Virus record (IMG/VR): IMGVR_UViG_2630968808_000003
Coordinates: 1 to 10,112 of that record
Direction: 5' to 3' (one strand)
Source of the DNA: a virus
Lineage: Duplodnaviria > Heunggongvirae > Uroviricota > Caudoviricetes
Length of the DNA: 10,112 nucleotides
Shown here: piece after piece, positions 1 to 8,012 of the stretch
Position numbering within the stretch: position 1 is the first letter of the stretch
Layout of the letters: each line of letters begins with the position of its first letter
The notes under the pieces: model-generated
Databases searched by the model: none
What the model saw: the letters and a program-made list of their open reading frames with translations, nothing else
Told to the model about the DNA's origin: nothing
Translations under genes and position numbers: made by a program

Positions 1-77
1 TTTGCACAACAGGTAAGAGCATTGAACCCGCAGACCTCGCGGAATTGGTGAAAGGTGCCGCGCAGTGCTCTTATCGT

Positions 78-207
78 TGTGGTGAAGCTCAATGGCGAGC
101 TAGCAGATAGGCGACAGTGAAAATACTAGTCATGTAACTGACCGCCGCGCGTACTGCAATCGGCAGCGCACCGATGGAAGCCGGTTCGATTCCGGCCGCC
201 ACAACCC
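78..207 (+). ncRNA. tRNA-like element of atypical length (degenerate or insert-containing tRNA, or tRNA-mimic RNA)
   Basis: Exact T-arm GCCGG-TTCGATT-CCGGC at 180-196 carrying the conserved GGTTCGATTCC motif. The 3' acceptor strand CGCCACA (197-203) pairs over 7 bp (6 Watson-Crick plus 1 G-U) with TGTGGTG at 78-84. A D-arm-like GCTC-AATGGC-GAGC sits at 87-100, at the expected distance from the 5' acceptor strand. However 79 nt lie between the D-arm and T-arm (about 22 expected), I could not fold a canonical anticodon arm, and the 3' end reads ACCC rather than encoded CCA. Confidence 0.35.
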
Positions 208-293: not shown

Positions 294-333
294 GGCAGGA
301 GGTTGCGCTAACAACCTCATGCCGTTTTGCCCG
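294..333 (+). terminator. Candidate intrinsic terminator or stable leader hairpin upstream of the lysis genes
   Basis: 12-bp stem with one G/A mismatch (294-305 GGCAGGAGGTTG pairing with 312-323 CAACCTCATGCC), 6-nt loop CGCTAA, followed one nucleotide later by TTTT (325-328). Its position upstream of the holin is consistent with a lambdoid tR'-type terminator that would be overridden by Q antitermination. Confidence 0.4.
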
Positions 334-450: not shown

Positions 451-654
451 ATGTACCGTATGGACAAAATCAGAGAATGGTTCAGTTACAGCTTCGGAGG
501 ACTGACTGCGATGGGTGGCATTCTCTCCCTGAATGACTGGGCTGTCATCATTGGTATTCTTTGTACTGTCGGCACATTTGGCATCAACTGGTACTACAAG
601 CGCAAAGAGCGCGAGGACAGATTGAATGGCAATGTCACCGGCACTACGAAATAG
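451..654 (+). CDS. Holin, class II, likely pinholin (67 aa), with dual-start motif
   Basis: Two predicted transmembrane segments (Gly-rich [17 protein letters not shown], then [20 protein letters not shown]) and a charged C-terminal tail KRKEREDR. N-terminus MYRMDK gives starts at 451 and 460 with an Arg between, the pattern of antiholin/holin dual starts (compare phage 21 S, MKSMDK as recalled). Lies directly upstream of and overlapping a SAR-type endolysin. Confidence 0.75.
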
Positions 655-1129
655 CGTAATAGCGGCGATAAGTGGCGGGGCTATTGCTATAGCATCTGTG
701 TTAATCACTGGGCCAAGTGGTAACGATGGTCTGGAAGGTGTGAGACATAATCCTTACAAAGACATAGTTGGTGTATGGACTGTGTGTCACGGACATACCG
801 GAAAAGACATCATGCTCGGGAAAACGTATACCGAAGCAGAATGCAAAGCCCTCCTGAATAAAGACCTTGCCACGGTCGCCAGACAAATTAACCCGTACAT
901 CAAAGTCGATATACCGGAAACAACGCGCGGCGCTCTTTACTCGTTCGTCTATAACGTGGGCGCAGGCAATTTCAGAACATCTACTCTTCTTCGCAAAATA
1001 AACCAGGGCGATATCAAGGGCGCATGTGACCAGCTACGTCGCTGGGCATACGCTGGCAGTAAGCAATGGAAAGGCCTGATGACTCGTCGTGAGATTGAGC
1101 GTGAGGTCTGTTTGTGGGGGCAACAATGA
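626..1129 (+). CDS. SAR endolysin, T4-lysozyme-like muramidase (GH24), 167 aa
   Basis: N-terminal Gly/Ala-rich weakly hydrophobic segment [19 protein letters not shown] typical of signal-anchor-release domains. Catalytic spacing E-x8-D-x5-T in [16 protein letters not shown] matches T4 lysozyme E11/D20/T26. Recalled resemblance to phage 21 R and E. coli prophage RrrD-type lysozymes is unverified. Start overlaps the holin 3' end by 29 nt; an alternative start at 632 is possible. Confidence 0.9.
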
Positions 1130-1563
1130 GCAGAGTAACCGCGATTATCTCCGCTCTGGTTATCTGCATCATCGTCTGCCTGTCATGGGCTGTTAATCAT
1201 TACCGTGATAACGCCATGACCTACAAAGAGCAGCGCGATAAAGCCACATCCACAATCGCTGACATGCAGAAGCGTCAACGTGATGTAGCTGAACTCGATG
1301 CCAGATACACAAAGGAGCTTGCTGATGCTAACGCGACTATCGAAAGTCTCCGTGCTGATGTTTCTGCTGGGCGTAAGCGCCTGCAGGTCGCCGCCACCTG
1401 TGCAAAGTCAACGACCGGAGCCAGCGGCATGGGCGATGGAGAAAGCCCAAGACTTACAGCAGATGCTGAACTCAATTATTACCGTCTCCGAAGTGGAATC
1501 GACAGGATAACCGCGCAGGTTAACTACCTGCAGGAATACATCAGGACGCAATGCCTTCGATGA
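1126..1563 (+). CDS. Rz: Rz, inner-membrane spanin subunit (i-spanin), 145 aa
   Basis: ATGA start/stop overlap with the endolysin. N-terminal transmembrane helix [18 protein letters not shown] followed by a coiled-coil-like charged region. The N-terminus [30 protein letters not shown] matches my recollection of lambda Rz. The supplied ORF starts at GTG 1114, but ATG 1126 is preferred. Confidence 0.85.
1325..1510 (+). CDS. Rz1: Rz1, outer-membrane lipoprotein spanin subunit (o-spanin), embedded in the +1 frame of Rz, about 61 aa
   Basis: Lies wholly inside Rz in another frame. Strong Shine-Dalgarno AAAGGAG (1311-1317) sits 7 nt before ATG 1325. Signal peptide [20 protein letters not shown] ends in a lipobox (VSAC), followed by the Pro-rich stretch [13 protein letters not shown] characteristic of Rz1. 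The supplied ORF begins at 1298, but the first Met there lacks signal-peptide character. Confidence 0.75.
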
Positions 1564-7028: not shown

Positions 7029-7118
7029 TTAACCCATAACGTGCAATGGCTGTCTTTATGAGGCCTGGCACCTTATTGCCTTCCGATGGGCTGAACATCG
7101 AGTAAACAGGGGTAACAA

Positions 7119-8012
7119 ATGGACCAGATGGCAGAAAACACACCAGAAGTTGAAATCGAAACCGATACATCAGAGCAGATTCCTGATGATGTCGAACTGG
7201 CTGAAGAAGTTGAAACAGAAGATGGCAGTGAGTCCTCTGGCAATGATGCAGAGGAAGCTACTGAAACTGATGACGACGAATCAGAACAGGAATTCTACTT
7301 TGGTGACGAAAAGCTGGATTCGCCAACCAGCGAAGATAGCGCAGAGCATGGACTGGTAAAACACCTGCGCAAGACGATTAAAGAGAAAGACCGCGAGCTG
7401 AAAGAGCTGATGCGTCAGTCTCAGAAACCCGTCGAGCAGCAGCCGGTAATCACTCAACCACCGCGAATGCCAAAACTGGATGATGAGGACATCGGTTTCG
7501 ATGAAGAAATCTATCAGCAACGCATGGCTAAGTGGGCAGAGGATAACGGAAAGTACCAGCAACAGGAGATGGCTCGCAAGCAGAAGGAGCAGGAGCTTCA
7601 GGCTGCTTATCAAGAGCGATTATCCAAATATCAGCAACGTGTTAAGGCTCTCAAGGTTCCTGGCTATCAGGAAGCAGAACAGGCCGTACTCGAGGAAATC
7701 CCCATCGAGACACAAAACGCGATCCTGTTTGAGTCAGAGAAGCCGGAAATCGTTGTTCTGGCGCTTGGTCGCAACGCTGAACTGCGCAAGCAACTGGCAG
7801 AAGCTACCAACCCCGTAGCAATTGGTCGTCTGCTGGAACGTATCGAATCTAAGGCCAGAATCATGCCAAAAGCAAAAACCACGGCAGCCACAACCCCGAC
7901 AGTTAAGGGGAGCAACGGCGCAGTAATCAATAACCTCGACAAACTGAAAGCCAAGGCGCTGGAAACTGGTGACTGGACGCCGTATTTCGCCGCTAAAAAG
8001 GCAAAAAAATAA
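7119..8012 (+). CDS. Scaffolding protein (297 aa)
   Basis: Lies between portal and coat. Strongly acidic N-terminal ~70 residues, a long charged helical middle, and a basic C-terminal tail ending GDWTPYFAAKKAKK. Local pattern LFESEKPEIVVLALGRNAELRKQL resembles the P22 gp8 region LFPEKSAALMYHLGANPEKARQL (recollection). Ribosome-binding site AGGGG upstream. Confidence 0.85.
   Translation: MDQMAENTPEVEIETDTSEQIPDDVELAEEVETEDGSESSGNDAEEATETDDDESEQEFYFGDEKLDSPTSEDSAEHGLVKHLRKTIKEKDRELKELMRQSQKPVEQQPVITQPPRMPKLDDEDIGFDEEIYQQRMAKWAEDNGKYQQQEMARKQKEQELQAAYQERLSKYQQRVKALKVPGYQEAEQAVLEEIPIETQNAILFESEKPEIVVLALGRNAELRKQLAEATNPVAIGRLLERIESKARIMPKAKTTAATTPTVKGSNGAVINNLDKLKAKALETGDWTPYFAAKKAKK

Follow-up and report, generated by a model that had tools for sequence, protein, structure and literature searches.

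Several RNAs that do not decode are built on the body of a transfer RNA (tRNA). Transfer-messenger RNA (tmRNA), the YrlA RNAs and engineered tRNA scaffolds all use the acceptor, T-arm and elbow portion of a tRNA for tRNA-type processing and stability, and the YrlA RNAs, which reportedly occur in some phages, are said to have a tRNA-like domain and to end in a Ro-binding helix. Phage T4 encodes two stable RNAs, rnaC and rnaD (species 1 and species 2). The rnaC RNA, 139 nucleotides (nt) long, combines a large structured insert with a canonical T arm that adjoins an acceptor-like 3′ end. Its gene neighbors tRNA genes, and its function is still unexplained (PMC9697503). Here we describe an element found at positions 76-207, on the + strand, of a 10,112-nt stretch of phage DNA (IMG/VR record IMGVR_UViG_2630968808_000003; "the window" in what follows is this whole stretch). 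With a probability that we set at about 0.55, the element is a cassette for a phage-borne, non-decoding, tRNA-bodied noncoding RNA that would be released from long transcripts and form a homodimer. The comparative analysis of its relatives showed a conserved, strand-specific predicted structure with the body of a tRNA, from which the decoding features have been lost, which is portable between genomic contexts, and which in some phages appears to have a transcription unit of its own.

T4 rnaC is the nearest analogue in kind, being another oversized tRNA-bodied phage RNA, and the likeness is architectural. A covariance model of the family described here (R1, see below) scored rnaC at 14.1 bits, all of it from the T arm, and homology to rnaC or rnaD was rejected. 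T4 rnaC also differs in that no equivalent self-complementary loop hexamer was seen in it, and it belongs to another phage group and another genomic setting. The element can nonetheless be considered a tractable relative of the species 1 RNA problem, that is, of an oversized tRNA-like phage RNA with an unexplained function. Unlike tmRNA, it lacks the alanine identity pair, the tag reading frame and the pseudoknots. It differs from YrlA in its strand topology and in having no Ro60 gene with it, and from the engineered scaffolds in the location of the payload, which they carry in the anticodon stem and the element in an additional arm.

The predicted fold of 76-207 (-50.5 kcal/mol, z = -3.05; none of 200 shuffled sequences was as stable) is a five-helix shape that consists of a closing helix, a D arm, an extra arm, a hairpin at the anticodon position and a T arm (Table 1). 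A preliminary description of this stretch had pointed out an acceptor-like 7-bp helix, a D-arm-like hairpin and an exact T arm, and the three were found where it had placed them. The helix is formed by TGTGGTG (78-84) and CGCCACA (197-203) and includes one U·G pair; G76 and T77 with A204 and C205 provide two outer pairs, which extend it to 9 bp in the window. The T-arm motif GGTTCRANTCC occurs once in the 10-kb window, compared with 0.03 occurrences expected by chance. The surplus of about 55 nt over a tRNA that had been remarked upon is a single discrete arm, 103-157, which follows the D arm and precedes the anticodon-position hairpin. Members of the family are 127-130 nt long instead of the approximately 76 nt of a tRNA; measured from one end of the 7-bp helix to the other, they have 126-128 nt. 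An encoded CCA is indeed missing, since A204 is followed by CCC. The statement that there is no canonical anticodon arm was right about the loop, which is non-canonical (A33, C37), and wrong about the arm, because a 5-bp/7-nt hairpin is present at 159-175. No conserved open reading frame (ORF) was found over the element. The ORFs that overlap it are short and non-conserved, a protein-coding reading was discarded, and the T-arm motif does not fall within a conserved coding frame.

Copies of the element were collected from IMG/VR by pattern scanning, done three times with another part of the element as the anchor each time, so that no part is conserved by search design. The scans identified 152 copies in 152 loci from Enterobacterales phages and prophages, and the one that used the extra-arm internal loop as its anchor revealed no new subfamily. 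Alignment A1, which includes 60 distinct sequences in 137 columns, was scored against the five-helix structure plus the loop hexamer described below. Standard pairs were formed in 95.2% of the cells, compared with 83.6 ± 0.4% when the partners were shuffled and 27-46% when they were slid by one to three columns. Both sides had changed in 23 of the 40 pairs, and the covariation score was 0.333 against 0.142 after shuffling, a value that was reached by none of 500 shuffles. The closing helix, with 97.8% of its cells paired, showed both-sided change in five of nine pairs including the two outermost (UA/GC/AU); it is 9 bp long in about 55 of the 60 sequences and reaches 17 bp in the copies found in N leaders. 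Change on both sides was also found in three of four pairs of the base stem of the extra arm, eight of nine pairs of its upper stem and three of five pairs of the T stem. At the anticodon-position stem there were two such pairs out of five, and the sequences anchored on the D arm revealed ATCGG/CCGAT replaced by ATCAG/CTGAT, ATTGG/CCAAT and ATAGG/CCTAT. Every helix is kept by compensatory change, the D stem being nearly unvarying and the sole helix that does not contribute to the covariation. The functional strand must be the + strand because the frequent U·G and G·U pairs would read C·A on the other one. The preliminary description had looked to a library covariance-model match and to a conserved secondary structure as marks of a genuine RNA: the former was not obtained with the Rfam models, whereas the latter is strong.

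Unpaired positions are conserved as well. A85, A86, the GG of the D loop and the TTCGA of the T loop are invariant in 60 of 60 sequences, as is the last T of the T loop, and the two strands of the extra-arm internal loop, A-U-A and G-C-G-C-G-U-A, are almost invariant. The 7-nt loop follows the pattern N-A-(G/U)-C-G-C-A, in which A33 and C37, each present in all 60 sequences, stand where decoding tRNAs have U33 and a purine at 37. The discriminator position is variable (A, C or U), the tail depends on the context, and there is no conserved CCA. Two further interactions of the 7-nt loop were considered and rejected. A pseudoknot between its GCGC and the GCGCG of the extra-arm internal loop was not retained because the loop changes from G to U and the strand from U to C and from G to A without covariation. 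The same GCGC is used by RNAcofold as a second dimer site, yet it is broken in 7 of the 60 sequences.

The relation to tRNA was assessed by comparing a bona fide phage tRNA with the family. Covariance model R1 was built from A1, and the window scores 159.6 bits with it. The tRNA-Thr of Salmonella phage SPLA1b aligned to R1 from end to end with a single 57-nt deletion, the extra arm; the acceptor, the D arm, the 5/7 hairpin (as the anticodon arm), the GGAA (as the variable loop) and the T arm all correspond. The extra arm, 55-57 nt in the family, is thus inserted at tRNA position 26/27, outside the anticodon loop. An alternative reading of the same shape places the long arm at the site of the anticodon arm and takes the 5/7 hairpin as a long variable arm. 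The earlier suggestion that relatives carry tRNA genes in this slot was borne out: SPLA1b has tRNA-Asn and tRNA-Thr there. When the genomes are aligned, tRNA-Thr finishes (…AACCAGC-A-CCA) in register with window positions 203-207, the end of …CGCCACA-A-CCC. The element and the SPLA1b-type tRNAs have in common the slot, strand, acceptor, D arm, elbow, 4-nt variable linker and T arm. The element differs from them by the extra arm, A33/C37, the missing CCA, a 9-bp closing helix and a length of 127-130 nt. Compared with a canonical tRNA, it has the cloverleaf features (7-bp acceptor helix, D-arm GG, TTCRA T loop and a variable region of 4-5 nt) and does not have U33 with a purine at 37, a length of about 72-95 nt, or detectability by tRNA models. 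It therefore fits the portrait of a tRNA-mimic noncoding RNA, one of the options offered initially, better than that of a working tRNA, as the tRNA body is kept and the decoding features are lost. The alignments suggest that it descends from a phage tRNA, probably its evolutionary source, in which an arm was gained at position 26/27 and the features needed for decoding disappeared.

The apical loop of the extra arm includes a hexamer that is self-complementary in all 152 copies and in all 60 distinct sequences, in spite of having seven spellings: ACUAGU (82 copies), UCUGGA (22), UCUAGA (21), UCGCGA (19), GCUAGC (5), UCCGGA (2) and ACCGGU (1). Its three mirror pairs are 100% paired in A1, with three, one and four pair types, and its flanks are A-rich. 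Selection thus acts on the hexamer to keep it self-complementary. Self-duplexes of the hexamers range from -5.2 to -11.2 kcal/mol and most cross-combinations are much weaker, the stronger ones being UCUGGA with UCUAGA or UCCGGA, ACCGGU with UCCGGA, and ACUAGU with GCUAGC; these energies are nearest-neighbor duplex values and not models of kissing complexes. A 6-nt palindrome without a gap cannot pair within itself, so self-folding is excluded. A protein-binding site is disfavored because such a site would keep its sequence, and here the spelling changes. UCUGGA is self-complementary through G·U pairs only, and since these are specific to RNA, the pairing is expected to take place at the RNA level. 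The simplest account of the hexamer is that one copy of the RNA pairs with another, loop to loop, so that the two would probably form a kissing homodimer. A known parallel is the dimerization initiation site (DIS) of human immunodeficiency virus type 1 (HIV-1), where a 6-nt self-complementary loop sequence with A-rich flanks differs by lineage and self-complementarity is kept. The element resembles the DIS in the three respects, a loop palindrome that varies by lineage, preserved self-complementarity and A-rich flanks. It is unlike the DIS in that the loop is 18 nt long instead of 9, it belongs to an arm of a tRNA-shaped RNA and not to a viral genome, and the dimer is a proposed one. The covarying palindromes nevertheless lead to a clean, testable prediction of RNA homodimerization.

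The window corresponds to the late region of a lambdoid phage that is P22-like (Lederbergvirus-type), and positions 1-450 constitute its late leader. In the near-identical homolog vB_EcoP-611R6 (locus L003 in our numbering), the end of the Q gene is overlapped by a TTGACA-18-CATAAT promoter (PR′), which is followed on its 3′ side by the tR′ hairpin and its U-run; the window starts directly after this U-run. The late leader of lambda has the same PR′/tR′ layout. Because the element is downstream of tR′, its transcription should need Q antitermination and it should not be part of a short constitutive PR′ transcript, which had been the initial proposal. In the window, expression is very probably Q-dependent and occurs as part of the late transcript, judging from this arrangement.

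Alignment of late leaders (A3) showed that lambda, the window, CUS-3 and a Skate-type locus share the flanks …CAGTGCTCTT(T/A)(C/T)CGTTGTG and CACAAC…. The interiors are different: about 75 nt of unrelated sequence in lambda, the element in the window, a 215-nt alternative in CUS-3, and two real tRNAs in SPLA1b. The lambda hairpin (L162 376-465; NC_001416 ~44855-44944), to which, to our knowledge, no function has been assigned, is closed by GTTGTGCTG/CAGCACAAC, with one compensatory pair with respect to GTTGTGGTG/CGCCACAAC in the window. Its insert was evaluated as a degenerate member of the family and rejected, the match to R1 being not significant (10.7 bits, E = 0.28). CUS-3, Huey and IME10 have the 215-nt insert within the same closing helix, GTTGTGGTGAA…CGCCACAAC (positions 1576-1797 of L001, the CUS-3 locus). 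This insert starts with a D-arm-like ACGCA-GGCTGA-TGCGT and ends with a T-arm-like GTCGG-AGTTCAGCA-CCGAC, and its last 60 nt or so match intergenic DNA of Aeromonas, Acinetobacter and Pseudomonas phages. It had no match in Rfam and no significant match to R1, and it was not accepted as a member; it may be a second, larger tRNA-shelled RNA. The tips of the leader hairpins are, then, exchangeable slots for RNA cargo, which can be real tRNAs, the element, the CUS-3 insert or the lambda inserts.

A second location was found in the N leader, with 33 copies (alignment A2). In an Escherichia coli EC28 prophage, the sequence is identical to lambda through the nutL boxB and GCUUUGGGGUGUG, and again from CACACCACCAAAGC through the N start codon, and the element occupies the interior. 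The lambda hairpin at this site, between nutL and N, is presumably the ribonuclease (RNase) III site that relieves N autoregulation. The 33 copies are located exactly where this hairpin is in lambda; the nutL boxB and the N start are retained, as is the lower stem (GCUUUGGGGUGUG/CACACCACCAAAGC), and the interior is wholly replaced. The resulting fold is a tRNA shape atop a 17-bp lower stem (z = -6.1). The copy in the window differs from these in that it is in the late leader and not at the lambda RNase III hairpin.

Other copies have other surroundings. Twenty-seven are upstream of a different holin/endolysin pair and of the known small RNA (sRNA) STnc100. In one of these loci (L014), STnc100 was identified at 7060-7262 on the - strand with 55.7 bits, above its gathering score, between the element (7340-7475), which it directly follows, and the holin genes; therefore, one late leader can hold two tandem RNA genes. 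STnc100 and the Pas sRNAs were considered as identities for the element and rejected, since they are separate RNAs of the same neighborhood. Further copies are found inside structural operons. Some have the layout of stand-alone units with sigma-70-type promoters. The unit in a Skatevirus (L004) has a promoter, TTGACA-17-TAGATT, at 2307-2335, the element at 2501-2634 and a terminator at 2733-2758, antisense to the flanking tail genes; the one in L021 has them at 13375-13403, 13612-13746 and 13888-13915, respectively, antisense to baseplate genes. Sizeable ORFs flank 104 of the copies on either side. In 75 of these the element runs in the same direction as its two neighbors, in 10 it is antisense to the two, and in the other 19 the orientation is mixed.

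These observations can be joined in the following mechanism. The RNA of the window would be made only after Q-dependent read-through of tR′, within the late transcript. Host tRNA maturation would cut it out, with RNase P acting on the 5′ side and endo- and exonucleases on the 3′ side, and the tRNA body would stabilize it; the lower stem that is kept in N leaders could be an additional target, for RNase III. Excision of the RNA would also sever the leader. On structural grounds, excision and stabilization by means of the tRNA body are somewhat favored. Among the features of an RNase P substrate, the elbow and the coaxial stack are present, the helix has 9 bp in most copies and RCCA is not conserved, so that processing by RNase P is plausible but not assured. 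Two released copies would then pair through the hexamer, giving a symmetric dimer whose two ends are tRNA-like bodies, and the dimer would act in trans during lytic growth, its likeliest action being to bind or titrate a factor that recognizes tRNA, for instance a tRNA-directed defense nuclease. A trans-acting product is favored because there are stand-alone units and because the payload is elaborate and conserved; action on a tRNA-recognizing host factor in particular is put forward tentatively. If the target were a tRNA-directed defense, this would be a counter-defense made of RNA only.

A broader version of this idea is more speculative still and, in our estimate, unlikely to hold in full. 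The element would represent a class of phage noncoding RNA not recognized before, tRNA-bodied and joined into symmetric dimers by a programmable hexamer, with at least seven partly orthogonal codes. It would be an RNA-only moron that spreads as a cassette, both as stand-alone units and into antiterminated leaders at the tips of their hairpins. Its product would be a high-avidity decoy or inhibitor of a tRNA-directed host factor (an anticodon nuclease directed against phages, for example, or a toxin that modifies tRNA), and the diversity of the hexamers would reflect selection against mixed dimers between co-resident phages.

Several points weigh against the proposal of a released, dimeric, trans-acting RNA. 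The closing helix, with 9 bp and up to 17 bp in N leaders, exceeds the acceptor stem of a tRNA in length, and E. coli RNase P is helped by an RCCA tail, which the family does not conserve. The timing of expression, early from an N leader or late from a late leader, speaks against a function bound to one stage. Titration in the presence of about 10^5 cellular tRNAs would demand an unusually high affinity. The family is narrow, with an effective sequence number of 1.06 for R1, and part of the covariation comes from few lineages; nonetheless, the sequences of A1 come from more than six genomic contexts and include seven types of hexamer and several forms of the acceptor. Last, the predominance of co-oriented copies located in 5′ leaders (75 of 104) fits a role in cis equally well.

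That role in cis is the main rival explanation. The element could be a processing or insulation module of antiterminated transcripts, a "tRNA punctuation", whose released RNA has no function; the cut would part the nut- or qut-proximal leader from the N or holin cistron and set the 5′ end and the stability of the mRNA. The location of 97 of the 152 copies in a late or N leader and the co-orientation of 75 of 104 copies with both neighbors agree with it. So do the N-leader copies, in which the upper part of the presumed RNase III hairpin is replaced and the 17-bp lower stem is kept, and the real tRNAs that occupy the same late-leader slot in SPLA1b. However, a cleavage signal needs neither an extra arm that has a conserved internal loop nor an invariant non-decoding loop, nor a palindrome with seven spellings, and the stand-alone units that are antisense to structural genes have no 3′ cistron to regulate. 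Punctuation as the whole explanation is for these reasons rather unlikely, although it is compatible with a role in trans and the two are not exclusive.

A chargeable tRNA, or a miniature tmRNA-like RNA that receives its CCA after processing, is aminoacylated and acts at the ribosome, is improbable. The acceptor helix, the T arm and the elbow nucleotides are intact, and E. coli is able to add CCA post-transcriptionally. The detection programs gave this possibility a measure of encouragement. At a threshold relaxed to 80% (-ps80), ARAGORN reported a "tRNA-Ala with intron" at 77-208, and a search with the Rfam models at E<=10 on positions 1-500 found, apart from noise, a tmRNA 3′-end match of 12.9 bits that covers the T arm and the 3′ strand. 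The ARAGORN call, however, came amid plainly spurious ones, and no gene was found at the element in the default, intron, mitochondrial and tmRNA modes of the program. The tmRNA score is far under the gathering score of 47, no tRNA match appeared in the same search, and none of the 4227 Rfam models detected a family at threshold on the window. The invariant A33 and C37, the discriminator that can be A, C or U, and the unconserved CCA speak against it. The third acceptor pair is U-A and not the G·U (G3·U70) required for alanine charging of tmRNA, and there is no ORF suitable as a tag reading frame.

Less probable than a charged RNA is a tRNA gene that decays as a pseudogene, has been interrupted by an insertion or contains an intron, the last two of which had been suggested initially. 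A phage tRNA ancestor is likely, the element is in register with the real tRNA genes of its relatives, and its D arm is like those of phage tRNAs. Nevertheless, the extra arm is conserved and covaries across the 60 distinct sequences, and the compensatory changes throughout the helices of both shell and insert indicate purifying selection in unrelated contexts. The spread over seven hexamer types and more than six contexts is not that of a single recent clone. As for an intron, the insert is at position 26/27, outside the anticodon loop, and its 55-57 nt are too few for a group I intron, whose core has at least about 200 nt; the intron options of ARAGORN were negative at normal thresholds and no group I intron match was found on positions 1-500 at E<=10.

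A feature of the DNA, such as a recombination boundary sequence or a palindrome bound by a protein, without function as RNA, is about as improbable as a pseudogene. The borders of the cassette coincide with sequence common to different phages, and the annotators of CUS-3 labeled the flanking conserved segments "boundary sequences". However, strand-specific covariation that tolerates G·U makes sense in RNA only, a protein site would keep a sequence that in the hexamer changes wholly as self-complementarity stays, and the nucleotides of the tertiary contacts of a tRNA elbow are invariant. The remaining suggestion of the preliminary description, a bacterial Y-RNA-like (YrlA-type) module that tethers Ro60/Rsr, has in its favor the tRNA-like domain and the presence of YrlA in some phages, and is dismissed as very improbable because no Rfam match was obtained at E<=10, the RNA ends in an acceptor helix, the neighbors are lysis, N, cI or structural genes, and neither the window nor the retrieved contexts contain an rsr gene.

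The distribution of the family was determined in several collections. BLAST searches with a 146-nt region matched 92 phage records, and the carriers include Lederbergvirus, Lambdavirus, Wanchaivirus, HK75, two Pantoea phages and the virulent Salmonella Skatevirus/seszw group. The element is present in 175 of 5426 complete E. coli genomes (~3%). A scan of 185,579 genomes, one per bacterial species, found it in Enterobacterales only, namely in Klebsiella, Enterobacter, Superficieibacter and Rosenbergiella; of the three other matches, two were due to chance and one was a probable contaminant. The late and early leaders of the lambda and P22 type have been studied as intensely as almost any DNA, yet in about 3% of the complete E. 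coli genomes and in several phage genera they hold a conserved, covarying structured RNA that has not been annotated. Searches by sequence string and by topic, with catalogue supplements outside their reach, found no published description of the element, and the family of tRNA-shaped phage RNAs has apparently been undescribed until now. A catalogue published in 2023, which lists 10,006 candidate phage RNAs, could hold the element as an anonymous entry (PMC10690425).

Annotation pipelines give the element no label, a partial tRNA label or a coding label. PGAP left it unannotated in the E. coli genomes among the matches listed (175 matching). In Salmonella phage vB_CECAV_048, a 58-nt "tRNA-Ser" (L004 2575-2632) is a misannotation over the 3′ part of the element only, and in vB_EcoP-611R6 a "polyubiquitin-A" coding sequence (CDS; L003 1485-1610) is a misannotation over hairpin 1 of the leader and the 5′ part of the element.

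Table 1. Parts of the element and other features of the late leader and lysis region of the window
Feature	Position	Strand	Basis or remarks
Closing-helix 5′ strand, acceptor-type	76..84	+	Sequence, fold, covariation (A1 columns 3-11/126-134)
A85 A86 linker, D arm, T101 A102	85..102	+	Aligns to tRNA-Thr D arm
D arm GCTC-AATGGC-GAGC	87-100	+	Stem 87-90/97-100, loop 91-96, GG at 94-95
Extra arm	103..157	+	Base stem 103-106/154-157; upper stem 110-118/137-146
Extra-arm internal loop	ATA 107-109 opposite GCGCGTA 147-153	+	Conserved
Extra-arm apical loop, 18 nt	119-136	+	Holds hexamer ACTAGT
Self-complementary hexamer ACTAGT	125..130	+	Candidate kissing-loop dimerization site
Anticodon-position hairpin ATCGG-CAGCGCA-CCGAT, 5 bp/7-nt loop	159..175	+	Stems 159-163/171-175; aligns to tRNA-Thr anticodon arm
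GGAA linker (176-179) and T arm GCCGG-TTCGATT-CCGGC (180-196)	176..196	+	Stem 180-184/192-196, loop 185-191
Closing-helix 3′ strand 197-203 (to 205), discriminator-position A204, CCC tail	197..207	+	CCC 205-207 replaces CCA
Hairpin 1, upstream leader hairpin	12..75	+	Fold and alignment A3; closing stem GGTAAGAGCATTG/CAGTGCTCTTATC common with lambda, interior replaced
Downstream hairpin GGCAGGAGGTTG-CGCTAA-CAACCTCATGCC, then GTTTT	294..328	+	Fold; common with lambda late leader (L162 ~552-586)
Holin, first late-operon gene 3′ of leader	451..654	+	PHROG match
Endolysin	626-1129		PHROG match
Rz spanin	1114-1563		PHROG match

Besides the lysis cassette, the genes of the window include those for the small and large terminase, portal, scaffold and coat protein. 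A gene of the Rha-like regulator/anti-repressor family (1748-2431), unrelated to the element, is located between the lysis cassette and the small terminase. The strong hairpin with a U-tract that had been noticed downstream of the element is the one at 294-328, followed by GTTTT; it resembles a weak intrinsic terminator, and with only four T residues it is not called by a simple terminator scan.

Hairpin 1 travels with the element into Skatevirus and L021. It is itself a second exchangeable cassette (lambda L162 313-385; L021 13538-13614), in which the closing stem, GGTAAGAGCATTG/CAGTGCTCTT(A/T)(T/C)C, is common and the interior has three alleles, one found in lambda and Skate, another in the window and CUS-3, and the third in L021. 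Upstream of hairpin 1, the stand-alone units of L021 (13415-13535) and L033 (9765-9905) have a conserved region of about 130 nt, …TAGCGGTCCGGGG…CAGCGGGTAGCCGGAATGTG…ACAGCGACT…CATCGTGGCGGT…, which had no match in Rfam and could be a further RNA domain or the leader of another phage group. The interior of hairpin 1 in L021 holds a T-loop-like sequence, GCAGAG-TTCGATT-CTCTGC.

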